Part shown: positions 2,568 through 44,262 of the stretch, piece after piece
Numbering within the stretch: position 1 is the first letter of the stretch
How the letters are laid out: each line of letters opens with the position of its first letter
NCBI GenBank assembly: GCA_026770705.1
Contig: JANJGN010000008.1
Span: 129,146,001 to 129,210,000 of the forward strand
Direction: 5' to 3'
Length of the DNA stretch: 64,000 bases
Source: Isurus oxyrinchus
Lineage: Eukaryota
Notes under the pieces: model-generated
Told to the model about the DNA's origin: nothing
The model's input: only the letters and a program-made list of their open reading frames with translations
Database searches by the model: none
Program-made: the position numbers and the translations under genes

Positions 2568-2606
2568 AGTTAAAGTTTCGAGTCCGAATGACCCTTCAAC
2601 AGAACT
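2568..2606 (-). ncRNA. Minimal hammerhead ribozyme motif (degenerate)
   Basis: Minus strand agtt-CTGTTGA-a-gggtc-attcg-gactc-GAAA-cttt-aact; helices I and II pair, helix III palindrome mutated. Confidence 0.6.
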
Positions 2607-2636: not shown

Positions 2637-2675
2637 AGTTCTGTTGAAAGGTCATTTGGACTTGAAACGTTAACT
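2637..2675 (+). ncRNA. Minimal hammerhead ribozyme motif
   Basis: agtt-CTGTTGA-a-aggtc-atttg-gactt-GAAA-cgtt-aact; AACGTT palindrome at helix III. Confidence 0.65.
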
Positions 2676-10584: not shown

Positions 10585-11289
10585 TAAAGGCAAAAAACTG
10601 TGGATGGTGGAAATCCAAAATAAAAACAAAAATACCTGGAAAAACTCAGCAGGTCTGGGCAGCATGTGCGAGAGGAACACAGTTAACATTTCGAGTCCGA
10701 CTGACCCATCGACAGAACTAAGTAAAAATAGAACAAAGGTGAAATATAAGCTGGTTTAAGGGTGGGTGGGACAAGTAGAGCTGGATAGAGGGCCAGTGAT
10801 AGGTGGAGATAACCAAAAGCAGTCACAGACAAAAGAACAATGAGGTGTTGAAGCTGGTGATATTATCTAAGGAATGTGCTAATTAAGGGTAGAAAGCAGG
10901 ACAAGCAAGGTACAAATAGACCTAGTGGGGGTGGGGTGGGGTGAAGGAATCGAAAAAGGCTAAAAGGTAGAGATAAAACAATGGATGGAAATATATTTAA
11001 AAATAATGGAAATAGGTGGGAGAAGAAAAATCTGTATAAATTATTGGCAAAAAAGGGGGCTATCGGAAAGGGGGAGGGAGGGGATGGAGGAGAGAGTTCA
11101 TGATCTAAAATTGTTGAACTCAATATTCAGTCCAGAAGGCTGTAAAGTGCCTAGTGGAGGATGAGGTGCTGTTCCTCCAGTTTGTGTTGAGCTTCACTGG
11201 AACAATGCAGCTGGCCAAGGACAGACATGTGGGCATGAGAGCAGGGTGGAGTGTTGAAATGGCAAGTGACAGGGAGGTCTGGGTAATGC
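10585..11289 (-). mobile_element. Older 5'-truncated PLE (family A-related): endonuclease C-terminus, 3' UTR, hammerhead, long tail
   Basis: 11095-11289 aligns with 13080-13280 (GLNIEFNNFRS end); terminal repeat 10585-10760 includes the tail extension. Confidence 0.9.
10681..10719 (-). ncRNA. Minimal hammerhead ribozyme motif
   Basis: agtt-CTGTCGA-t-gggtc-agtcg-gactc-GAAA-tgtt-aact. Confidence 0.6.
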
Positions 11290-12650: not shown

Positions 12651-12689
12651 AGTTGACGTTTCGAGTCTTCATGACCCTTCGACAGAACT
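12651..12689 (-). ncRNA. Minimal type I hammerhead ribozyme motif (PLE family A)
   Basis: agtt-CTGTCGA-a-gggtc-atgaa-gactc-GAAA-cGTC-aact; predicted cleavage between 12655 and 12654. Confidence 0.75.
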
Positions 12690-13085
12690 TGATTTCGAGT
12701 CCAGGAAAGAGTTGAAATATAAGTTGGTTTAAGGTGTGTGGGGGGGGGGGGGGGGGGGGCGCGGAGAGAGAGAGAGAGACAGAGGTGCTTGTGTAGACAA
12801 ACAAGCAGTGATAGAAGCAGATCATCAAAAGATGTCAGTGACAATGGGACAAAAGAACACATAGGTGTTAAAGTTAAAGTTGGTGATATTATCTAAACGA
12901 ATGTGCTAATTAAGAATGGATGGTAGGGCACTCAAGGTACAGCTCTAGTGGGGGTGGGGGGAGCATAAAAGATTTTAAAATATTTAAAAATAAGTGGGAA
13001 AAGAAAAATCTGTAAAATTTATAGGGAAAAAAAGGGGGGAAAAAAAGGGGGGAAACAGAAAGGGGGTGGGGATGGGGGAGGGAGC

Positions 13086-15835
13086 TCACGACCTAAAGTT
13101 ATTGAATTCAATATTCAGACCGGAAGGCTGTAAGGTGCCTAGTCGGAAGATGAGGTGTTGTTCCTCCAGTTTGCGTTGGGCTTCACTGGAACAATGCAGT
13201 AAGCCAAGGACAGACATGTGGGCAAGAGAGCAGGGTGGAGTGTTAAAATGGCAAGCGACAGGGAGGTTTGGGTCATTCTTGCGGACAGACCGCAGGTGTT
13301 CTGCAAAGCGGTCGCCCAGTTTACGTTTGGTCTCTCCAATGTAGAGGAGACCACATTGGGAGCAACGAATGCAGTAGACTAAGTTGGGGGAAATGCAAGT
13401 GAAATGCTGCTTCACTTGAAAGGAGTGTTTGGGCCCTTGGACGGTGAGGAGAGAGGAAGTGAAGGGGCAGGTGTTACATCTTTTGCGTGGGCATGGGGTG
13501 GTGCCATAGGAGGGGGTTGAGGAGTAGGGGGTGATGGAGGAGTGGACCAGGGTGTCCCGGAGGGAGCGATCCCTATGGAATGCCGATAAGGGGGGTGAAG
13601 GGAAGATGTGTTTGGTGGTGGCATCATGCTGGAGTTGGCGGAAATGGCGGAGGATGATCCTTTGAATGCGGAGGCTGGTGGGGTGATAAGTGAGGACAAG
13701 GGGGACCCTATCATGTTTCTGGGAGGGAGGAGAAGGCGTGAGGGCGGATGCGCGGGAGATGGGCCGGACACGGTTGAGGGCCCTGTCAACGACCGTGGGT
13801 GGAAAACCTCGGTTTAAGGAAGAAGGAGGACATGTCAGAGGAACCGTTTTTGAAGGTAGCATCATCGGAACAGATGCGACGAAGGCGAAGGAACTGGGAG
13901 AATGGGATGGAGTCCTTACAGGAAGCGGGGTGTGAGGAGCTGTAGTCGAGGTAGCTGTGGGAGTCGGTGGGTTTGTAATGGATATTAGTGGACAGTCTAT
14001 CACCAGAGATTGAGACAGAGAGGTCAAGGAAGGGAAGGGAAGTGTCAGAGATGGACCACGTGAAAATGATGGAGGGGTGGAGATTGGAAGCAAAATTAAT
14101 AAATTTTTCCAAGTCCCGACGAGAGCATGAAGCGGCACCGAAGTAATCATCGATGTACCGGAGAAAAAGTTGTGGAAGGGGGCCGGGGTAGGACTGCAAC
14201 AAGGAATGTTCCACATATCCCATAAAGAGACAGGCATAGCTGGGGCCCATGCGGGTACCCATAGCCACACCTTTTATTTGGAGAAAGTGAGAGGAGTTGA
14301 AGGAGAAATGCCAGACGGAGGAGAGTAGTGGTGGATGGGGATTGTTCGGGCCTCTGTTCGAGGAAGAAGCTAAGGGCCCTCAGACCATCCTGGTGGGGGA
14401 TGGAGGTGTAGAGGGATTGGACGTCCATGGTGAAGAGGAAGCGGTTGGAGCCAGGGGAACTGGAAATTGTTGATGTGACGTAAGGTGTCAGAGGAATCAC
14501 GGATGTAGGTGGGAAGGGGACTGGACAAGGGGAGAGAGAAGGAAGTCAAGATAACGAGAAATGAGTTCTGTGGGGCAGGAGCAAGCTGAGACGATCGGTC
14601 TACTGGGGCAGTTCTGTTTGTGGATTTTAGGTAGGAGATAGAAGCGGGCCGTCCGAGGTTGGGCGACTATCAGGTTGGAAGCTGTGGGAGGGAGATCCCC
14701 AGAGGAGATGAGGTCCGTGACAGTCCTGGAAACAATGGCTTGATGTTCAGTGGTGGGGTCATGGTCCAGGGAGAGGTAGGAGGAAGTGTCTGCGAGTTGA
14801 CGCTCAGCCTCCGCGAGGTAGAGGTCAGTGCGCCAGACAACAACAGCACCACCCTTGTCAGCGGGTTTGATGACAATGTCAGGGTTGGACCTGAGAGAAT
14901 GGAGTGCAGTAAGTTCAGAGAGAGACAGGTTAGAATGGGTGAGAGGAGCAGAGAAATTGAGACGACTAATGTCGCGCCGACAGTTCTCAATGAAAAGATC
15001 AAGAGAAGGTAAGAATCCAGAGGGAGGGGGTCCAGGTGGAGGGAGAATATTGGAGATGGGTTAAAAGGATCCGTTGAACTGGGAGAGGACTCCTGCCCAA
15101 AGAAGTGAGCCCGGAGACGAAGACGGCGAAAGAAGAGTTCAGTATCATGCCGAGCCCGAAATTCATTGAGGTGAGGGCGTAAGGGTATGAAACTAAGTCC
15201 TTTGCTGAGCACTGAACGTTCAGCATCGGAGAGGGGAAGGTCAGGGGGGTATAGTGAATACACGGCTGGGGCTGGGATTGGAAGATGGGGTGGGGACGGA
15301 GGGACAGGCTGGGGGTGGAGGGTCCTAGATGGGTGTTGGTGTCGATGAGTTGTTGGAGCTTGCGTTCCTTAGCAGTTGAGAGAAAGAGAAAAAGTTTCTT
15401 GTTGAGGCGTCGGATGAGCCGAAGGATAAAATGAAACTGGGGGCACGCGCAGCTTTGAAAAAGGGTACGGCGGTGCTGCTGGAGGGAGAGGTCGAGTGTG
15501 TGTTCATACGGCGGCGCATGGCACTGAGTGTGGTTTTCAGAATGTGACGGGGAACAGCAGTCTGAGAAACGTTTTATATGTCCCGGAGATACCGGTAATC
15601 CTGGGTGTGGGTTCGAAAGATGAGGGGGTGGAATTTCAGTTGAAATCCACGTGGGGTAAGTCGGAGACGGAGACAGTCACTGAGAAAGGAGATATGGCTG
15701 TGAAAGCGGGTTTTAGTAAACACCTTGTCAAACACTAGGAGGGAAATGGAAAGCAAAGAAGGTGAACAAGGGCAACAGAGAGATACGGAAATCTTGTCGC
15801 AGAGAGGAACAGAACTTCTTCAAGGAGGTAGGCAT
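13086..15835 (-). pseudogene. PLE RT/GIY-YIG ORF, copy 1 (frameshifted as assembled)
   Basis: Starts ATG CCT ACC TCC TTG AAG AAG at 15835; YIDD, GTRMGPSYA and YIGET motifs are spread over several frames; many +1/+2 indels in homopolymer/dinucleotide runs and a 23-nt deletion near 14309. Confidence 0.9.
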
Positions 15836-15837
15836 TT

Positions 15838-15925
15838 CTTGAAGAGCAGTGGCAGTCAATTAAACACAGAGATAAAAACAAAGAGAACTGCGGATGCTGG
15901 AAATGCAAAACAAAAACAGAATTAC
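15838..15925 (-). other. Predicted 88-nt GT-AG intron in the PLE 5' UTR
   Basis: Donor CAG|GTAATT at 15925, branch-like TTGAC about 18 nt from the 3' end, acceptor CTCTTCAAG| at 15838, then AA-ATG of the ORF. Confidence 0.7.
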
Positions 15926-15970
15926 CTGGAAAAACTCAGCAGGTCTGGCAGCATCGGCGGAGAAGAAAAG

Positions 15971-16009
15971 AGTTGACGTTTCGAGTCTTCATGACCCTTC
16001 GACAGAACT
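15971..16009 (-). ncRNA. Minimal type I hammerhead ribozyme motif (PLE family A)
   Basis: Identical to 12651-12689. Confidence 0.75.
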
Positions 16010-16403
16010 TGATTTCGAGTCCAGGAAAGAGTTGAAATATAAGTTGGTTTAAGGTGTGTGGGGGGGGGGGGGCGCGGGAGAGAGAGAGAGAGACAGAGGT
16101 GCTTGTGTAGACAAACAAGCAGTGATAGAAGCAGATCATCAAAAGATGTCAGTGACAATGGGGACAAAAGAACACATAGGTGTTAAAGTTAAAGTTTGGT
16201 GATATTATCTAAACGAATGTGCTAATTAAGAATGGATGGTAGGGCACTCAAGGTACAGCTCTAGTGGGGGTGGGGGGAGCATAAAAGATTTTAAAATATT
16301 TAAAAATAAGTGGGAAAAGAAAAATCTGTAAAATTTATAGGGAAAAAAAGGGGGGAAAAAAAAGGGGGGGAAACAGAAAGGGGGTGGGGATGGGGGAGGG
16401 AGC

Positions 16404-18274
16404 TCACGACCTAAAGTTATTGAATTCAATATTCAGACCGGGAAGGCTGTAAGGTGCCTAGTCGGAAGATGAGGTGTTGTTCCTCCAGTTTGCGTTGGGC
16501 TTCACTGGAACAATGCAGTAAGCCAAGGACAGACATGTGGGCAAGAGAGCAGGGTGGGAGTGTTAAAATGGCAAGCGACAGGGAGGTTTGGGTCATTCTT
16601 GCGGACAGACCGCAGGTGTTCTGCAAAGCGGTCGCCCAGTTTACGTTTGGTCTCTCCAATGTAGAGGAGACCACATTGGGAGCAACGAATGCAGTAGACT
16701 AAGTTGGGGGAAATGCAAGTGAAATGCTGCTTCACTTGAAAGGAGTGTTTGGGCCCTTGGACGGTGAGGAGAGAGGAAGTGAAGGGGCAGGTGTTACATC
16801 TTTTGCGTGGGCATGGGGTGGTGCCATAGGAGGGGGTTGAGGAGTAGGGGGTGATGGAGGAGTGGACCAGGGTGTCCCGGAGGGAGCGATCCCTACGGAA
16901 TGCCGATAAGGGGGGTGAAGGGAAGATGTGTTTGGTGGTGGCATCATGCTGGAGTTGGCGGAAATGGCGGAGGATGATCCTTTGAATGCGGAGGCTGGTG
17001 GGGTGATAAGTGAGGACAAGGGGGACCCTATCATGTTTCTGGGAGGGAGGAGAAGGCGTGAGGGCGGATGCGCGGGAGATGGGCCGGACACGGTTGAGGG
17101 CCCTGTCAACGACCGTGGGTGGAAAACCTCGGTTAAGGAAGAAGGAGGACATGTCAGAGGAACCGTTTTTGAAGGTAGCATCATCGGAACAGATGCGACG
17201 AAGGCGAAGGAACTGGGAGAATGGGATGGAGTCCTTACAGGAAGCGGGGTGTGAGGAGCTGTAGTCGAGGTAGCTGTGGGAGTCGGTGGGTTTGTAATGG
17301 ATATTAGTGGACAGTCTATCACCAGAGATTGAGACAGAGAGGTCAAGGAAGGGAAGGGAAGTGTCAGAGATGGACCACGTGAAAATGATGGAGGGGTGGA
17401 GATTGGAAGCAAAATTAATAAATTTTTCCAAGTCCCGACGAGAGCATGAAGCGGCACCGAAGTAATCATCGATGTACCGGAGAAAAAGTTGTGGAAGGGG
17501 GCCGGGGTAGGACTGCAACAAGGAATGTTCCACATATCCCATAAAGAGACAGGCATAGCTGGGGCCCATGCGGGTACCCATAGCCACACCTTTTATTTGG
17601 AGAAAGTGAGAGGAGTTGAAGGAGAAATTGTTCAACGTGAGAACAAGTTCAGCCAGACGGAGGAGAGTAGTGGTGGATGGGGATTGTTCGGGCCTCTGTT
17701 CGAGGAAGAAGCTAAGGGCCCTCAGACCATCCTGGTGGGGGATGGAGGTGTAGAGGGATTGGACGTCCATGGTGAAGAGGAAGCGGTTGGAGCCAGGGAA
17801 CTGGAAATTGTTGATGTGACGTAAGGTGTCAGAGGAATCACGGATGTAGGTGGGAAGGGACTGGACAAGGGGAGAGAGAAGGAAGTCAAGATAACGAGAA
17901 ATGAGTTCTGTGGGGCAGGAGCAAGCTGAGACGATCGGTCTACCGGGGCAGTTCTGTTTGTGGATTTTAGGTAGGAGATAGAAGTGGGCCGTCCGAGGTT
18001 GGGCGACTATCAGGTTGGAAGCTGTGGGAGGGAGATTCCCAGAGGAGATGAGGTCCGTGACAGTCCTGGAAACAATGGCTTGATGTTCAGTGGTGGGGTC
18101 ATGGTCCAGGGAGAGGTAGGAGGAAGTGTCTGCGAGTTGACGCTCAGCCTCCGCGAGGTAGAGGTCAGTGCGCCAGACAACAACAGCACCACCCTTGTCA
18201 GCGGGTTTGATGACAATGTCAGGGTTGGACCTGAGAGAATGGAGTGCAGTAAGTTCAGAGAGAGACAGGTTAGA
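16404..18274 (-). pseudogene. PLE ORF, copy 2 (5'-truncated; RT domain open, endonuclease C-terminus frameshifted)
   Basis: ORF 16502-18442 contains IKPADKGG, KIHK, DVQSLYTSIP, YIDD, CPRKRCNTC and VYCIRC..C...YIGET. Confidence 0.9.
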
Positions 18275-18280
18275 CCCATC

Positions 18281-19494
18281 TCCGGCCCATCTCCCGCGCA
18301 TTCCGCCCTCACGCCTTCTCCTCCCTCCCAGAAACATGATAGGGTCCCCCTTGTCCTCACTTATCACCCCACCAGCCTCCGCATTCAAAGGATCATCCTC
18401 CGCCATTTCCGCCAACTCCAGCATGATGCCACCACCAAACACATCTTCCCTTCACCCCCCTTATCGGCATTCCGTAGGGATCGCTCCCTCCGGGACACCC
18501 TGGTCCACTCCTCCATCACCCCCTACTCCTCAACCCCCTCCTATGGCACCACCCCATGCCCACGCAAAAGATGTAACACCTGCCCCTTCACTTCCTCTCT
18601 CCTCACCGTCCAAGGGCCCAAACACTCCTTTCAAGTGAAGCAGCATTTCACTTGCATTTCCCCCAACTTAGTCTACTGCATTCGTTGCTCCCAATGTGGT
18701 CTCCTCTACATTGGAGAGACCAAACGTAAACTGGGCGACCGCTTTGCAGAACACCTGCGGTCTGTCCGCAAGAATGACCCAAACCTCCCTGTCGCTTGCC
18801 ATTTTAACACTCCACCCTGCTCTCTTGCCCACATGTCTGTCCTTGGCTTACTGCATTGTTCCAGTGAAGCCCAACGCAAACTGGAGGAACAACACCTCAT
18901 CTTCCGACTAGGCACCTTACAGCCTTCCGGTCTGAATATTGAATTCAATAACTTTAGGTCGTGAGCTCCCTCCCCCATCCCCACCCCCTTTCTGTTTCCC
19001 CCCTTTTTTTCCCCCCCTTTTTTTCCCTATAAATTTTACAGATTTTTCTTTTCCCACTTATTTTTAAATATTTTAAAATCTTTTATGCTCCCCCCACCCC
19101 CACTAGAGCTGTACCTTGAGTGCCCTACCATCCATTCTTAATTAGCACATTCGTTTAGATAATATCACCAACTTTAACTTTAACACCTATGTGTTCTTTT
19201 GTCCCATTGTCACTGACATCTTTTGATGATCTGCTTCTATCACTGCTTGTTTGTCTACACAAGCACCTCTGTCTCTCTCTCTCTCTCCGCGCCCCCCCCC
19301 CCCCCCCACACACCTTAAACCAACTTATATTTCAACTCTTTCCTGGACTCGAAATCAAGTTCTGTCGAAGGGTCATGAAGACTCGAAACGTCAACTCTTT
19401 TCTTCTCCGCCGATGCTGCCAGACCTGCTGAGTTTTTCCAGGTAATTCTGTTTTTGTTTTGCATTTCCAGCATCCGCAGTTCTCTTTGTTTTTA
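18281..19494 (+). mobile_element. Inverted 3' segment of PLE (linker, complete GIY-YIG, 3' UTR, hammerhead, long tail)
   Basis: Reverse complement of 15872-17088; frame open to GLNIEFNNFRS* at 18964. Confidence 0.95.
19358..19396 (+). ncRNA. Minimal type I hammerhead ribozyme motif (PLE family A)
   Basis: agtt-CTGTCGA-a-gggtc-atgaa-gactc-GAAA-cGTC-aact; predicted cleavage after C19392. Confidence 0.75.
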
Positions 19495-20089
19495 TGTCAG
19501 GAAGTACAGACTTCACCAGAGATTCTGCACCCACCTCACCAACCAGCACTGGGTTTCGACAGAGCACAACGTGCTGCTCTGCACTCCTGATTACTTTAAT
19601 CAGCTAAGTAGTGTTTGGTCCACATTAACAGGGTGAGCAGTAAACTGTTGAAATACAAAATGTATAATTCACATGTATGGCACAAATCTTCCGGTCTCCA
19701 TACTTTCTAAATTGGAAGTTAATTTGGGATAATTATGTCAGGAGCCCGCGAAAGTCCTCACACACACACATGCACTGAATTGTCCAGGACTTTTTAACTT
19801 CCAAAGGGCATTTCTGTTGCTCGGGGCCGCCTGAAAAAGTCTGACACTGAGCTCAGTGTCAAAGACTTGGGCCAGATACACGGGATATACCTGAATACTT
19901 ACCCAGAAATAGCATCTTGGATTACACCTTGTCTAATTCAGAGATTAGCTCGCATAATTGAACAGAGCACCACAACCAACACCCCACCCCGCTATGAGCC
20001 ACCCTGACCTAACCCAACCCAACCCAAAACAAAAACAGAATTACCTGGAAAAACTCAGCAGGTCTGGCAGCATCGGCGGAGAAGAAAAG

Positions 20090-20128
20090 AGTTGACGTTT
20101 CGAGTCCTCATGACCCTTCGACAGAACT
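20090..20128 (-). ncRNA. Minimal type I hammerhead ribozyme motif (PLE family A)
   Basis: Same as the other copies; the single change (atgag vs atgaa) falls in loop II. Confidence 0.75.
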
Positions 20129-20514: not shown

Positions 20515-23270
20515 TCACGACCTAAAGTTATTGAATTCAATATTCAGACCGGAAGGCTGTAAGGTGCCTAGTTGGAAGATGAGGTGTTGTTCCTCCAGTT
20601 TGCGTTGGGCTTCACTGGAACAATGCAGTAAGCCAAGGACAGACATGTGGGCAAGAGAGCAGGGGTGGAGTGTTAAAATGGCAAGCGACAGGGAGGTTTG
20701 GGTCATTCTTGCGGACAGACCGCAGGTGTTCTGCAAAGCGGTCGCCCAGTTTACGTTTGGTCTCTCCAATGTAGAGGAGACCACATTGGGAGCAACGAAT
20801 GCAGTAGACTAAGTTGGGGGAAATGCAAGTGAAATGCTGCTTCACTTGAAAGGAGTGTTTGGGCCCTTGGACGGTGAGGAGAGAGGAAGTGAAGGGGCAG
20901 GTGTTACATCTTTTGCGTGGGCATGGGGTGGTGCCATAGGAGGGGGTTGAGGAGTAGGGGGTGATGGAGGAGTGGACCAGGGTGTCCCGGAGGGAGCGAT
21001 CCCTATGGAATGCCGATAAGGGGGGTGAAGGAAAGATGTGTTTGGTGGTGGCATCATGCTGGAGTTGGCGGAAATGGCGGAGGATGATCCTTTGAATGCG
21101 GAGGCTGGTGGGGTGATAAGTGAGGACAAGGGGGACCCTATCATGTTTCTGGGAGGGAGGAGAAGGCGTGAGGGCGGATGCGCGGGAGATGGGCCGGACA
21201 CGGTTGAGGGCCCTGTCAACGACCGTGGGTGGAAAACCTCGGTTAAGGAAGAAGGAGGACATGTCAGAGGAACCGTTTTTGAAGGTAGCATCATTGGAAC
21301 AGATGCGACGAAGGCGAAGGAACTGGGAGAATGGGATGGAGTCCTTACAGGAAGCGGGGTGTGAGGAGCTGTAGTCAAGGTAGCTGTGGGAGTCGGTGGG
21401 TTTGTAATGGATATTGGTGGACAGTCTATCACCAGAGATTGAGACAGAGAGGTCAAGGAAGGGAAGGGAAGTGTCAGAGATGGACCACGTGAAAATGATG
21501 GAGGGGTGGAGATTGGAAGCAAAATTAATAAATTTTTCCAAGTCCCGACGAGAGCATGAAGCAGCACCGAAGTAATCATCGATGTACCGGAGAAAAAGTT
21601 GTGGAAGGGGGCCGGGGTAGGACTGCAACAAGGAATGTTCCACATATCCCATAAAGAGACAGGCATAGCTGGGGCCCATGCGGGTACCCATAGCCACACC
21701 TTTTATTTGGAGAAAGTGAGAGGAGTTGAAGGAGAAATTATTCAGTGAAAGAACAAGTTCAGCCAGACGGACGAGAGTAGTGGTGGATGGGGATTGTTCG
21801 GGCCTCTGTTCGAGGAAGAAGTGGAGAGCCATCATATCATCCCGGTGGGGGATGGAGGTGTAGAGGGATTGGACGTCCATGGTGAAGAGGAAGCGGTTGG
21901 AGCCAGGGAACTGGAAATTGTTGATGTGACGTAAGGTGTCAGAGGAATCATGGATGTAGGTGGGAAGGGACTGGACAAGGGGAGAGAGAAGGGAGTCAAG
22001 ATAACGAGAAATGAGTTCTGTGGGGCAGGAGCAAGCTGAGACGATCGGTCTACCGGGGCAGTTCTGTTTGTGGATTTTGGGTAGGAGATAGAAGCGGGCC
22101 GTCCGAGGTTGGGCGACTATCAGGTTGGAAGCTGTGGGAGGGTGATCCCCAGAGGAGATGAGGTCAGTGACAGTCCTGGAAACAATGGCTTGATGTTCAG
22201 TGGTGGGGTCATGGTCCAGAGAGAGGTAGGAGGAAGTGTCTGCGAGTTGACGCTCAGCCTCCGCGAGGTAGAGGTCAGTGCGCCAGACAACAACAGCACC
22301 ACCCTTGTCAGTGGGTTTGATGACAATGTCAGGGTTGGACCTGAGAGAATGGAGTGCAGTAAGTTCAGAGAGAGACAGGTTAGAATGGGTGAGAGGAGCA
22401 GAGAAATTGAGACGACTAATGTCGCGCCGACAGTTCTCAATGAAAAGATCAAGAGAAGGTAAGAATCCAGAGGGAGGGGTCCAGGTGGAGGGAGAATATT
22501 GGAGATGGGTAAAAGGATCCGTTGAACTGGGAGAGGACTCCTGCCCAAAGAAGTGAGCCCGGAGACGAAGACGGCGAAAGAAGAGTTCAGTATCATGCCG
22601 AGCCCGAAATTCATTGAGGTGAGGGCGTAAGGGTATGAAACTAAGTCCTTTGCTGAGCACTGAACGTTCAGCATCGGAGAGGGGAAGGTCAGGGGGTATA
22701 GTGAATACAAGGCTGGGGCTGGGATTGGAAGATGGGGTGGGGACGGAGGGACAGGCTGGGGTGGAGGGTCCTAGATGGGTGTTGGTGTCGATGAGTTGTT
22801 GGAGCTTGCGTTCCTTAGCAGTTGAGAGAAAGAGAAAAAGTTTCTTGTTGAGGCGTCGGATGAGCCGAAGGATAAAATGAAACTGGGGGCACGCGCAGCT
22901 TTGAAAAAGGGTACGGCGGTGCTGCTGGAGGGAGAGGTCGAGTGTGTTCATACGGCGGCGCATGGCACTGAGTGTGGATTTCAGAATGTGACGGGAACAG
23001 CAGTCTGAGAAACGTTTTATGTCCCGGAGATACCGGTAATCCTGGGTGGGTTCGAAAGATGAGGGGTGGAATTTCAGTTGAAATCCACGTGGGGTAAGTC
23101 GGAGACGGAGGCAGTCACTGAGAAAGGAGATATGGCTGTGAAAGCGGGTTTTAGTAAACACCTTGTCAAACACTAGGAGGGAAATGGAAAGCAAAGAAGG
23201 TGAACAAGGCAACAGAGAGATACGGAAATCTTGTCGCAGAGAGGAACAGAACTTCTTCAAGGAGGTAGGC
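20515..23270 (-). CDS. PLE polyprotein: reverse transcriptase + Cys-rich linker + GIY-YIG endonuclease (Neptune-type); ~918 aa if ATG and one frameshift are restored
   Basis: 882-aa ORF 20612-23260 with IKPTDKGG, KIHK, GRPIVS, DVQSLYTSIP, GVAMGTRMGPSYA, YIDD, FLDL, CPRKRCNTC, VYCIRCSQCGLLYIGET and HFN; an extra G in the run near 20662-20665 shifts the last ~48 codons (ends GLNIEFNNFRS). Confidence 0.9.
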
Positions 23271-28403: not shown

Positions 28404-29425
28404 GACCAAATCTTCCAGTCTCTGAATTGTCGGAGAGTGGGCATACAACCTAAGATGGCAGTCAGGACCCCACGGAAGTTCCGACATGTTGACCTCCGTG
28501 GGAATTGGCTCAGAATTTGGAACTTCCAATCAGCAACTCAGAGTCAGAGACTTCGTACAGTTCTGTCAAACTTACTGGGGGTGTTACCCAGGAAAAGTTA
28601 AATCAATTAAAAGCTATTCTAACTCCAAGGTAACTACAGAACTGACCCTCTAATCATTCACACTGAACCTCCCCCCCACCCTCCCCCCGCTACCCCCCAC
28701 ATCTGACCTTACCCAACTCGACAACAAGGAGCAGAACTACCCCCCACCAACCAACTACTCCCAACCCATCCAACAACACCCCAACCCACCTACCCTCTCA
28801 CCCACACACCAACCTGCCACTTCACATGCCTGCCATCCAACCCACCTACCACCTCACCCACCAGCCACCCCACCCACCTACAACCCTACCCACCTATCAT
28901 GCATCCACCTACAACCCTACCCCCCTATCAGGCTTCCATCTAATACCTCATCCACCTGCTAACCTACCCACTTACCGCTTCACCCATCTGCCATCCTACC
29001 CATCTGCCACCCTATGCTACACATCTCCACCCTACCCACCTACCACCTCACTCACCTGCTACCCTACCACCTCACACACCTACAACCCTATCCACCTGTC
29101 ACCATACCCACTTACCTCATCCGCCTACCTACCCTACCAACCTACCCATTCACTCATTCATCCACTCATCCATTCACTCATTCATTGACATGCACATTGG
29201 ACCTTTAAACCTACCTTATGGCAGCTAATGCTGCAAAAAGGGGGCGGGTCCCATCTTCCCCCTGATGCTACAGCGCTGAGGTGGAGTTCTCTGAGGGATG
29301 CTATGCTGTGCATAGAAACCAGGCTCAGAAGACCCAGCAAGAAATGCATGGCAGCACCGAGATGCGGAAAAGTTTGAGCGGAGCAGCAATCTGATGATGA
29401 TTGCCACTTATGGAAGATCTAGGCT
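28404..29425. mobile_element. Non-autonomous Harbinger-like TIR element with C-rich low-complexity core
   Basis: TIRs gaccaaatcttcca / tggaagatctaggct, aat/aat flanks; splits a PLE end remnant (28335-28400 joins 29426-29460). Confidence 0.6.
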
Positions 29426-32399: not shown

Positions 32400-35300
32400 T
32401 CAGCCACAGCATACCCAAAAGTACAGCTGCATAGCAAGGTGAGAATGGCTCATGGCCATCAAGATCATTATAGTCCTCAAAGTTCATGCCAGCAGAATCT
32501 CTGGGAGACAGCAGGCAACGTTTCCAATATTTGACAGCTCACCGTGAATTACAGCATCTGGGAGGGGATAATCTTCTCTATGACTAGAGAGGTTGAGGAG
32601 GAGTAATCACATGACTTTGCAAGGGTAGCAGGATTCCCAATAGTACAGATCAATTGCACTCATGTGGCTCTGCAGGCCCCACATATACATGGAAAGATGT
32701 ACTGTGACCGTAAGGGCTACCATTCCCTGGATGTTCATTTGATGTGTGACCATGCAGAGAATCATGTCAGTGAATACGTTAATGCTAAAAGGTTAGTCAA
32801 GGAAAAAGTGGAACCTATCAGAGATGAAGATGGAAACTTGTGTATAGATGCAGAGGCTGTGGGAAGGGTTTTGAATGAATATTTTATCTCTGTGTTTACA
32901 AAGGAAAGGGAGGATGTAGATATAGTAGTTCAGGAGGAACACAGCGAGATATTGGATGGGATAGTCATAAAGAGAAAGTACTCAAAGAGTTGAAATCCGT
33001 GAAAGTTGATAAGTCACCAGGGCCAGATGGATTGTTTCCAAGGCTGCTGAAGGAAGTCAGGGAGGAGATAGCACATCTGAGGATGATTTTCCAATCTTCA
33101 CTAGATACAGAGGAGATACCAGAGGACTGGAGAAATGCAAACGAAGTTCCATTGTTTAAAAAGGGATCAAAGGAAATGCCAAACAATTATAAGCCAGTTA
33201 GTCTTAAATCGATGGTGAGCAAATTAGTAGAATCAGCCCTGAGAGATAGGATTAACAGTCATGTGGAAAGGCATGGACTAGTCAAGGATGGTCAGCATGG
33301 ATTTGTTAAAGGAAGGTCTCCCTCACAAATTTGATTGAATTCTTTGAAGAAATGACAAGAAGGGTTGATAAAGGTACTGCAGTGGATGTTGTGTACATGG
33401 AATTTAGCAAGGCATTTGACAAGGTCCCACATGGCAGATTGGTCAGGAAAGTAAAAGCCAATGGGATTCAGGTTAATGTGGCAAACTGGATAAAAGGCTG
33501 ACTTTGTAACAGGAAACAAAGGGTAATGGTTGATGGATGCCCTTGCAAAAGGTGTTCCACAGGACTCGGTGTTGGGACCCTTGCTGTTTGTGTTATATTA
33601 TATATTAACGATTTGGACGTGAACGTGGGGGGCATGATTGGGAAATTTGCAGATGACACAAAGATTGGCCGAGTAGTGGATAGTGTAGAGGATAGCCATA
33701 ATCTTCAAACAATATAGATGGGTTGGTGGAGTGGGCGCTGAAGTGGCAGATGGATTTTAACATAGAGAAGTGTGAGGTCATACATTTAGAGAGGTCAGAA
33801 GGTTACAGGGATTACACAACAAATGGGAATATACTAAGAGGGGTAGATAAAGTGAGAGATCTTGGCATACAAGTACACAGGTCCATGAAGGCAGCAGTTC
33901 AAGTAGACAAGATTGTAAAGAAGACATATGAAATGCTCTCCTTCATCGGCAGAGATATAAAATATAAAAGTAAGGATATAATGTTGGAATTGTATAAAAC
34001 ACTGGTGAGGCCACAACTGGATTATTATGTGCAGTTCTGGTCACCACATTACAGGAAGGATGTAATAGCTCTGGAGAGAGTGCAGAGGAGGTTTACAAGA
34101 ATGTTGCCAGGGTTAGAAAAGTGTAGCTATGAGGAGAGATTGGATAGGTTGGGGTTATTTTCCTTAGAACAAAGAAGGCTGAGAGGTGACTTGATTGAGC
34201 TGTACAAAATTATAAGGGAAATAGAGTAGACAGGATAAAATTGTTTCCCTTGGTAGAGAGTTCTAGATCCGGGGACATAGATTCAAGATAAGTGGCAGGA
34301 TGTGTTGAGGGGACATGAGGAAGAATTTATTTATGCAGAGGGTAATGGGTGTCTGGAATACGCTGCCCAAGTTGGTGGTAGAGGCAGAAACTCTAAACTC
34401 TTTTAAAAAGTACCTGGATCAGCACCTTAAGTGCTGTAAGCTGCAGGACAATGAGTCAGGTGCAGGAAGGTGGGATTAGAAAGGTCACCTAGGTGTCCTC
34501 GGGCTGGCATGGACAAGATGGGCTGAATGGCCTTCTTCTCTGTGCTGTAACCTTTCTATGGTTCTGTGGTTCTAATACCCATTATCCTGGCAGCAGACAC
34601 AATGTATTCAACTTTTGCTAGTTAGGCAAACCCGGAATCTTCAGGCTACCAGAGGCTGGCTCCTTGGTGATAAGGGCTTCTTGCTTTATACCCGCTCATA
34701 CTCATTCTATACCTGGCACATGACTCTCATCCACCACCTAACAATGTTTGAACAGTGTGCCTACCGTGAGCACCATGATACAATTGGGAATGCAAGAAGC
34801 ACTTCATCAGCACCCTCAAACAATGGCCACATTACCTGGACAGCTTGTGGGGGGTTCCTTCAGCTCTCACCAGAGGATGTCTCCAATTTTGTGGTGGTCT
34901 GCTGCATCCTCTACAATGTTGCTCTCAGGAAAGCCAACCAGACATTCCGATGGCACTTTGAGAGGAGTAGGATGAAGAGAAGGAGGAGGGAGAGAAGGCA
35001 CCTGAGCTGTCTTCTCTCAGATGGGCTGTCTGTGGCAGTTTGGTTCCTCTGAAATGACATACCCATATCACCAAATCTCTGCAATTTCCTACCTTTCCAC
35101 TCCTCTGATACGGACAATCACAGAGTCTTCTTTGCCAAAACCCTGAAATAAAAAAAAGCACAAGAAAATCATTCCATAACAATATTATTGAACGACACGT
35201 CCAATAATACATGCAAGATCTTTTGTCTTGGGTGTGCCATGGCTTGTCCTAGTGTTCCTATATAGTGCTACCTTAGTGGCTGCAACGTGGCTGATGGAAG

Positions 35301-41791: not shown

Positions 41792-44262
41792 GGGCGGAAT
41801 CTTATGTCCTCTCTCATGGTGTGTTTTAAAGCAGGAAGGACAATTAATCAAGCAGAGGATGGTGGGTGAGGACCCCACTACCTTCCTGCTTCCAGCCTGA
41901 TTAAGTCCATAGTGGGAAGTCCCACAGAGGGCCTTCCCACCTGCCTTAATGAATACCCACTCAAGGGCCTCATCTCCTGCTGCAAGTATTAATCCAGCAG
42001 TGGGTGGGCCCGTCCCTATGTGGGAAGCACAATAAGCAAACCTGTATGGTTGCTTGTGGTCTCCTGGGCAGGATTCCTTGTTCAAAGGCATGCAGTGACA
42101 GGCTGAGGGACCTGGCATTGAGAAGAGGGTGGCACTGAGAACCAGCTCCCTGCCCTTGCTGCTGACTGGTCCACACCTCCCCCCACCCCCCCCAGCCCCA
42201 CAATGCCTACCCAATGAAACCTCTCTCTCCATTATTTCACAGAATCACAGAACTGTTACGGTGTAGAATGAGGCCGTTTGGCCCATTGTGTCTGCACTGG
42301 CTTTCCAAACATTTTAACTTAGTACCAAATTCCTGCTTTTTCCCTGTAACCATTAATATTGTTTCTATTTATATAATCATCCAATGCCCTATTGAATGCC
42401 TCAGTTGAACCTGCCTCGACCACAGTTCCAGGCAGTGCTTTCCAAACCCTAACTACTCGCTGCGTGAAAAAGTTTTTTTCTCACTTTGCAATTGCTTCTT
42501 TTGCAAAACGCTTTAAAATTGTGCCCTTTGGTTCTCGATCCGTTTACTAGCAGAAACAGTTTCTCCCAATCTACTCTGTGCAGATTTTGAAAACTTCTTT
42601 CAAGTATCCTCTCAGCTTTCTCCTCTCCAAGGAAACAGTCCCAACCTCTCTAATCTTTGCTCATAACTGAAGTGTCTCATCCCTGGAACCATTCTCATAA
42701 ACCTATTCTGCACTGTCTCCAATGCGTTCACATCCTTCCTACAGTGTGGTGCCCAGAACTGTACACAGTACTCCAACTGAGGCCTAATCAGTGTCTCATA
42801 TAAGTTCATCTTAACCTCCCTTCTCTTGTACTCTATGCCCCTATTAATGAAGCTTAGAGTGCTGTATGCTTTAGAAACAGCTCTCTCTACCTGTTCTGCC
42901 ACCTTTAATGACTTATGTACATATACATCGAGGCCTCTTGACTCCTGCACACCCTTTAGAATGGTATCCTTTATTTTATACTGTCTTTCCATGTTCTTTG
43001 TACCAAAGTGCATCACCTCACACTTTTCCGCATTGAACTTCAACAGCCACCCATCTGCTCACTCCACCAATGTGTGTCGATGTCCTTTTGAAGTTCTACA
43101 CTGTCCTCCTCACAGTCGACAATTCTCCCAAGTTTTGTATCATCCACAAACTTTGAAATTGTCCCCTGCACACCAAGATCTAGATCATTTATATATATCA
43201 GGAAGAGCAAGGGTCCCATTACTGGGCCCTGGGGAACTCCACTACAAACATTCTTCCAGCCCAAAAAATACTTATTAACCATTACTCTCTGTTTCCTATC
43301 CCTCAGCCAATTTTGTATCCACATTGCTACTGCACCTTTTATTCCATGACTTATAACTTTTCTCACAAGTCTGTTGTGGGCACTATATCAAACACCTTTT
43401 GGAAGTCCATATAAACCACATCAATGGCCTTGCCCTCAGCAACCACCTCTGTTACCTCTTCAAAAAACTCTTAACAAATTAGTTAGACACGATTTTCCTT
43501 TAACAAATCTATGCTGACTCTTCCAAATCAATCCACATTTTTTTATGTGACTATTAATTCTACCCCGAATAATTGCTTCAAGAAGTTTCCCTACCACTGA
43601 AGTTAATCTGACTGATCTGTAATTGCACAGCAGACCTTTACAGCCTTTTTTGAACAAGAGTGTAATGTTTGCAATTCTCCAGTCTTCCGGCACCTCCCCA
43701 GAATCCAGGGAACATTGAAAGATTATTGGCAGTGTCCCTGCAATTTCCATGCTCACTTCCCTCAATATTCTTGGATGCATCTCATCCGGTCCCGATGCCT
43801 TATCAACTTTAAGTACTGACAGCTTATCCAATACCTCCTCCTTATCAATTTTAAGCCATCTAGTGACTGAGTTTCCTACTTTGCCACCATGGCCTGGATA
43901 GCATCTGCCTCCTAGGTAAAGACAGATGCAAAACATTCACTTAATGCTTCAGCCATGCCTCTTGCCTCTACGGGTCTCTCCTCCATCTTGGGCCTCCATT
44001 GGATATTGTTCGGTTGCAGCCACCAGATTCATGGTGATGCAGCTGAGCAAAAGTGCTGCCCACCTCTGATTGGCCAGCAGATCTCAGTAGGCAGGACTTC
44101 CTGCCCCTGGGGTCCTGATCTTGCAGAAGGCCTATCACTGGCCTCTCAAGTGCCTGTTTGGCTTGTGAGTCGGTGGGCCTTCCCCAAAGGAGTCATCACA
44201 GGTCCCTTGTTGGGTCTCCAGCCAGCAGACGAGGCACCCGTCGCATCCACAAAATTCTGCCC
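41792..44262. mobile_element. Harbinger-type MITE interrupted by a CR1
   Basis: TIRs gggcggaatcttatg / cacaaaattctgccc, ttt/ttt flanks. Confidence 0.7.
42238..43953 (-). mobile_element. CR1 LINE, 5'-truncated ORF2 pseudogene
   Basis: ORFs 43460-43936, 43040-43366 and 42612-43043 with KASGPD, SGVPQG, KFVDDTK and FNAEKCEVMHFG. Confidence 0.95.

Follow-up and report, generated by a model that had tools for sequence, protein, structure and literature searches.

A homologous hammerhead core variant with a pyrimidine at position 6 in a Penelope-like element of the shark Isurus oxyrinchus

Introduction

Minimal type I hammerhead ribozymes (min-HHRs) are carried by Penelope-like elements (PLEs) of metazoans, and the accessible part of the survey that described them names U3-A8 as the only core variant and lists no cartilaginous fish (PMC4209133). 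In the anole PLE Poseidon PAc, the hammerhead is described as cleaving only with the element protein and as being dispensable for insertion in vitro, while the reverse transcriptase (RT) uses two internal start sites downstream of it (PMC11167929). Furthermore, a natural hammerhead core in which A6 is replaced by C is reported to cleave slowly (PMC3088659, PMC7151607). Here we describe a hammerhead motif with U at position 6 (U6) in a PLE of the shark Isurus oxyrinchus, found within a stretch of 64,000 nucleotides (assembly GCA_026770705.1, contig JANJGN010000008.1, positions 129,146,001 to 129,210,000, forward strand; hereafter the window). The original prediction for this DNA, made from its letters, held that U6 is a maintained natural variant, and we weigh that claim against the genomic copies of the element.

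Results

All seven 39-nt motifs that the original prediction had placed in the window were found there with the U6, the extra base, the GAAA and the 4-bp helix I ascribed to them, five on the minus and two on the plus strand. The young subfamily is represented by the plus-strand motif at 19358..19396, in which C3 is nucleotide 19362 and U6 is 19365, and in which cleavage is predicted after C19392, the same residue that had been named beforehand. On the minus strand lie the motif at 20090..20128 (U6 at 20121), in the 3' terminal repeat of an open reading frame (ORF) copy at 20612-23270; that at 15971..16009 (U6 at 16002), between two tandem units and about 140 nt upstream of the ORF's ATG; and that at 12651..12689 (U6 at 12682), which is 3,320 nt, or one unit length, downstream of the 15971 copy. 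The three remaining motifs belong to an older subfamily, equally with U6: 10681..10719 (minus) and 2568..2606 (minus) have a broken palindrome (AUGU and ACUU, respectively), and the latter forms the left arm of an inverted pair whose right arm, at 2637..2675 (plus), carries a GUU triplet. The seven are not independent, as one tandem/inverted cluster, whose copies are 97-100% identical, accounts for four of them and 2568 and 2637 form the inverted pair.

Each of the seven consists of CUGU(C/U)GA with one extra base after A9, a 4-bp helix I and a 5-bp helix II with complementary strands, the latter with a 5-nt loop, and GAAA, after which come two bases, then UC or UU, and finally the strand that closes helix I. 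Nine of the ten fixed hammerhead bases are kept (C3, U4, G5, G8, A9, G12, A13, A14 and A15.1), position 6 being U in every case, and in this respect the core departs from that of a canonical hammerhead. The G10.1-C11.1 pair is present in six motifs; the ACGU palindrome is intact in five (all except 10681 and 2568), extended to AACGUU in 2637 only; and the cleavage triplet is GUC in four, GUU in two and UUU in one, with an A15.1-U16.1 pair and an NUH triplet. A descriptor with positions 6 and 7 left free returned exactly these seven motifs in the window, and one that required the palindrome gave 48 matches in 1.66 Mb, 44 of them U6, versus four in three 2-mer shuffles of that DNA. The Rfam hammerhead models gave no match at E<=10 in the window, a weak test given that the window's canonical minimal motifs were missed too; the expectation that standard CUGANGA searches would overlook the U6 motif was borne out. 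A second minimal hammerhead family in the window (27831 and 56057, minus; 56368, plus), which has the canonical A6, 2 bp in helix II and a palindrome of AAGCUU type, offers a natural positive control.

Genome-wide, one fixed pattern frame gave 89,042 exact matches with U6, 3,787 with A6 and 2,202 with C or G at this position, counts that are biased toward young families, and pattern-reversed controls gave none. When 130 copies were recruited through their downstream flank alone from 160 fixed-coordinate stretches (1.6 Mb), 66 had U, 17 A, 4 G and 2 C, with 41 unassigned and a few of the non-U calls mis-registered at inversion junctions. At loci that were chosen irrespective of the core sequence, U6 was present in 32 of 33 in-register copies of the oldest type (40 examined) and in all 45 young ones (65 examined), in agreement with the earlier view that U6 is a natural state of young and old subfamilies and not a product of decay; at such loci no propagated variant was seen at other core positions beyond CpG decay. 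Position 6 has nevertheless moved again, from U to C. C6U7 occurs in 1,273 copies whose upstream block is intact, and among the 100 matches listed for one subfamily that is defined by its flank and has 1,519 exact copies, we counted by eye 57 with U6, 43 with C6 and none with A or G, a C6 share that far exceeds point decay and argues that C6 masters have transposed. This propagated C6 sublineage (CUGCUGA) is nested in the U6 lineage, and its core is identical to that of the Mn-preferring Bcep176 variant. Reversion to A6 is seldom seen in the young background, with about 4 of 100 listed A6 matches having the young loop. As such, position 6 looks relaxed to pyrimidine, rather than fixed on U.

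In order to follow the history of this position, 149 copies were grouped by their flanks only, and the 16 of them that stayed unassigned were dropped; some of these loci had originally been chosen by core pattern or BLAST. The A6 groups carried A in 16 of 17 copies, at a median divergence of about 7% from the majority sequence, while the six U6 groups carried U in 25/26, 5/6, 9/9, 15/15, 21/22 and 38/38 copies, with the oldest diverged by 4.3% and the youngest by about 1%; the values of two small mixed groups are inflated. A tree of 155 copies, midpoint-rooted and noisy, with truncated copies on long branches, is ladder-like, with A6 at one end, old U6 next and young U6 at the other. From these ages, the state of the A6 sister family as outgroup and the published min-HHRs (56 of 56 with A6), we infer that the change ran from A to U. 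The A6 sister subfamilies are older and fewer than the U6 copies and share their motif frame and flanks, and are thereby recognized as homologs. The A6 sister family that serves as outgroup is an older one, with a helix II of AGGUC/GACCU (loci L108, L222 and L260). In the young subfamilies, a partial second copy of the helix II 3' strand and GAAA was acquired upstream, step by step (19345-19356, plus, and equivalents). This duplicate precedes the probable start site of transcription, and so would be present at the 3' motif only, where it could compete; folding gave no clear competing helix for it.

Across the majority sequences of the six U6 groups, only 1 of 31 constrained positions varied, compared to 5 of 8 tolerant ones (Fisher p=5e-4). 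The single constrained change, at 10.2, turns an A-U into a G.U and keeps the pair, and the tolerant changes concern N7, three loop II bases and position 17, which takes C or U only. On these majorities, the varied positions coincide with the known hammerhead tolerance map. The 3' untranslated region (UTR) upstream of the motif differs at 47 of 173 positions (27%; p=0.002 versus the constrained positions), and the flanks that adjoin the motif at 11 of 20 (just upstream of helix I) and 4 of 16. The claim that U6 is a maintained variant thus survives in part: the rest of the motif appears to have been constrained after the change, whereas U itself would not have been specifically selected, since a C6 sublineage has propagated and since, at a background divergence of about 27%, a given site is expected to remain unchanged by chance in about 73% of cases. 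In folding predictions, the probability of helix II is at least 0.9 in isolated 39-mers and often low in longer context. Because 39-mers with A6U7 and with U6U7 both show alternative pairings that mask the palindrome, U6 would have no specific folding effect, and folding does not separate the candidate explanations in these models.

The ends of the genomic copies bear on the RNA that was reverse transcribed. The 1.6-Mb sample yielded 63 young copies. Their 3' ends are at +93 to +104 from C3 in 35 cases and at +132 to +145 in 25, and 42 of the 63 begin at -12 to +23; the A6 families show the same 5' peak. Transcription would therefore start at or within a few bases of helix I, and most copies would be short products made from the 5' end of uncut RNA. 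Genome-wide, starts exactly at the cut outnumber those 4 nt upstream, by 241 to 82 with the U6 flank and 25 to 5 with an A6 flank, but microhomology accounts for many of them (inversions and deletions at AAC), and different filters were applied. Starts at +24 to +40 were seen in 4 of 28 A6-type and 0 of 97 U6-type copies; old copies give false alignment ends, and these counts are not used as evidence.

By domain order, linker, and tandem and inverted terminal repeats with a tail, we assign the host to the endonuclease-bearing (EN+) PLEs of Neptune type. The ORF at 20612..23270 (minus) encodes RT and, C-terminally, a GIY-YIG domain, the two joined by a CX4CxxC linker; this copy begins just inside the ORF 5' end and has a frameshift near the C-terminus. 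A second copy at 13086..15835 (minus) spans the full ORF, is frameshifted, and has its ATG at 15835 (MPTSLKK, which resembles homolog N-termini). RVT_1 was matched at E=1.9e-7 and GIY-YIG at E=9e-4, below the Pfam cut-off, and the protein has 784 homologs, the best named one being a bamboo shark protein with 67% identity. Its RT-EN linker, CPRKRCNTC, fits CX2-5CxxC, a trait of Neptune that is described as common to Nematis as well (PMC8557442). The motif lies in the PLE terminal repeat, sense to the ORF and about 490 nt past its stop codon; this placement and its A6 homologs support the earlier identification as a PLE minimal hammerhead. A 5'-truncated tandem unit (15899..18274, minus) lies upstream of the full unit, and since tandem copies are 3,320 nt apart, cleavage as a dimer may be possible. 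As the ATG at 15835 follows the motif by about 140 nt and the ORF does not overlap it, coding overlap was rejected as the source of its conservation. An inverted 3' part of the element (18281..19498, plus) carries the 19358 motif, together with a TATA-like TATATTT at 19326..19332 (plus), about 31 nt before helix I, in a block that is near-invariant across the U6 subfamilies and may act as promoter, and a conserved tail at 19413..19498 (plus) with two sites where genomic copies end, which are likely internal RT start sites. A possible 5' UTR intron is marked by a donor, CAG/GTAATT, at 19442 (plus) and a pyrimidine tract before the ATG (about 15925-15838, minus), as in Penelope. Inverted mini-copies in a head-to-head arrangement, with their junction at or within the motif, are very common (2498-2745 in the window, and many other loci).

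The repeat is also present in a second organism, in which 0.59-0.64 of the 39 words were matched and 105,910 contigs aligned with no other letter listed at 19365; U6 is likely there too, although some sequence differences went uncounted. No reads of two raw DNA runs aligned to the repeat, a single matching RNA contig had a depth of 3 and is not evidence of expression, and a metagenome scan gave 10 loci, none of which matched the descriptor. Elsewhere in the window, decayed RT fragments, which we take to be CR1/L2-like, occur at 32879-34229 (plus) and 42781-43936, and a degenerate 16-nt C-rich tandem array at 28757-29132.

Discussion

So what does a hammerhead without A6 do for this element? 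We hold, with a confidence that is about even, that the motif still cleaves, only weakly, and is aided by the element protein or a second copy, which would make it an attenuated ribozyme. The transcript would start near helix I, so that the motif would make up its first ~36 nt and be repeated at its 3' end, and two motifs could pair through ACGU to give helix III. The RT protein, for which synthesis would begin 60-110 nt downstream from the cut, might fold the motif as in the anole element. Without A6, cleavage would be slower, which could be tolerated since retrotransposition uses uncut RNA, and whatever need is left for the fold and for G8/G12 would keep the remaining positions fixed.

A number of observations weigh against continued cleavage. 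The signal from the core by itself is modest, with 0 of 10 positions changed at a background of 27% (p~0.04), and neighbours that are not part of the ribozyme are equally conserved, namely the tail (1 of 33 positions varied) and, likewise, the TATA-like block. The covariation in helices I and II that had been proposed as a check was absent within the U6 lineage, where none of nine pairs changed on both sides in 75 distinct copies; it appeared for helix II only, and only against the A6 sister family, at 10.1-11.1 and 10.2-11.2 (31 of 100 among the matches listed). A helix I mismatch occurs in 10 of 46 A6 sister copies, so constraint in the A6/U6 clade is loose, and when longer stretches are folded, the predicted optimum is usually another structure than the hammerhead. 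Furthermore, none of the 63 young copies starts at +24 to +45, the cut site being +31. The RNA templates that were copied were thus uncut, which does not mean that cutting never occurs, as cut RNA would lose its cap. Finally, even min-HHRs with A6 are reported to cleave poorly (PMC4209133), and single and double mutants in the CUGA region of a type III hammerhead are described as all of low activity, with the exception of a C3-G8 swap (PMC9901934).

An uncut template would also be in line with a motif that no longer cleaves, of which the fold and junction bases are kept for binding or folding of the RT protein at the RNA ends, position 6 having mattered for catalysis only. We regard this as possible, if doubtful. 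It would account for the successive changes of position 6, from A first to U and then to C, in lineages that propagated, and for the lack of a return to A6 among the listed matches, both of the 1,519-copy subfamily and, save for the few with a young loop, of A6 copies; insertion of the anole element in vitro needs no cleavage (PMC11167929), and Naiad PLEs are reported to proliferate without canonical hammerheads (PMC8557442). Conversely, a pure binding site need not obey a catalytic tolerance map, and here G8, G12, A13, A14 and the ACGU palindrome are fixed while position 17 alternates only between the cleavable C and U. That same pattern of changes, at N7, loop II, position 17 and one wobble, is not predicted if conservation acts at the DNA level, on an internal core promoter that overlaps the motif (the first 40 nt after the start) while the ribozyme is dead. 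The clustering of 5' copy ends around C3 (42 of 63), the TATA-like block about 31 nt upstream and the reported position of Penelope promoters in the terminal repeat (PMC8557442) do fit such a promoter, but the bases just upstream of helix I are free to change (11 of 20), and we think it very unlikely.

Equally, there is little reason to favor a mere vestige, in which A6U killed the ribozyme in one master, hitch-hiked, and is too recent for further decay. A single mutation in one lineage does account for all U6 copies, and the exact-match counts favor young families; at the UTR rate, however, about eight changes would be expected in the 31 constrained positions, where one was seen and that one keeps its pair, which makes this explanation improbable. 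A more far-reaching proposal, to which we assign a rather low probability, is that the change from A6 to a pyrimidine is an evolved brake, in which the element protein replaces the role of A6, or cleavage is tuned down such that uncut template is spared, and by which the U6 lineage displaced its A6 sisters. If this were true, the U6 lineage would be among the most abundant non-canonical hammerheads of any genome.

Whether as an attenuated ribozyme or otherwise, the motif has consequences for how hammerheads are sought and studied. Searches fix A6 as invariant, and a family of about 89,000 copies is thereby invisible to them; some PLEs that were reported to be without hammerheads may be similar misses. 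Moreover, a natural series of A6, U6 and C6 in a near-identical background makes the role of PLE hammerheads testable, that is, whether cleavage helps or limits retrotransposition. We found no natural A6U in the literature, including the accessible parts of PMC11014351, PMC6765202, PMC6155905, PMC12192606 and a 2026 preprint, a coverage that is incomplete and leaves room for an earlier report.

Of the systems described, the metazoan PLE min-HHRs are closest (PMC4209133). They are alike in their place in the terminal repeat on the sense strand, the 4-5 bp helix I, G10.1-C11.1, the extra base at 9/10.1, the loop-less helix III with palindromic 15.2-16.2, and a spacing of about 3 kb between tandem copies. 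Two traits that the original prediction had noted, the extra base following A9 and the palindrome that lacks a loop, are accordingly standard for this class. The difference lies at position 6, which is A in all 56 rows of Fig. S3 of that survey, largely by construction of its descriptor, and U or C here. The sister copies in the same genome are the same in helix I, GAAA, palindrome, tail and upstream block, and differ in having a CUGAUGA or CUGAAGA core. Anolis Poseidon PAc compares in having two RT start sites that are internal and lie downstream of its hammerhead, and in the use of uncut RNA as template (PMC11167929), whereas its hammerhead overlaps the ORF start and is protein-assisted, and the shark element is of Neptune type and has its ORF about 140 nt downstream. 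The A6C hammerhead of phage Bcep176 likewise has a natural change at position 6 and retains the other core bases, and shares CUGCUGA with the C6 sublineage (PMC3088659, PMC7151607); it is a single phage ribozyme that has been shown to cleave slowly and to prefer Mn, unlike the U6 motif, which is minimal, of dimer type, present in about 89,000 copies and identified through genomic data. Taken together, the shark U6 motif is best described as a homologous core variant of the PLE min-HHR architecture, and not as a canonical hammerhead.

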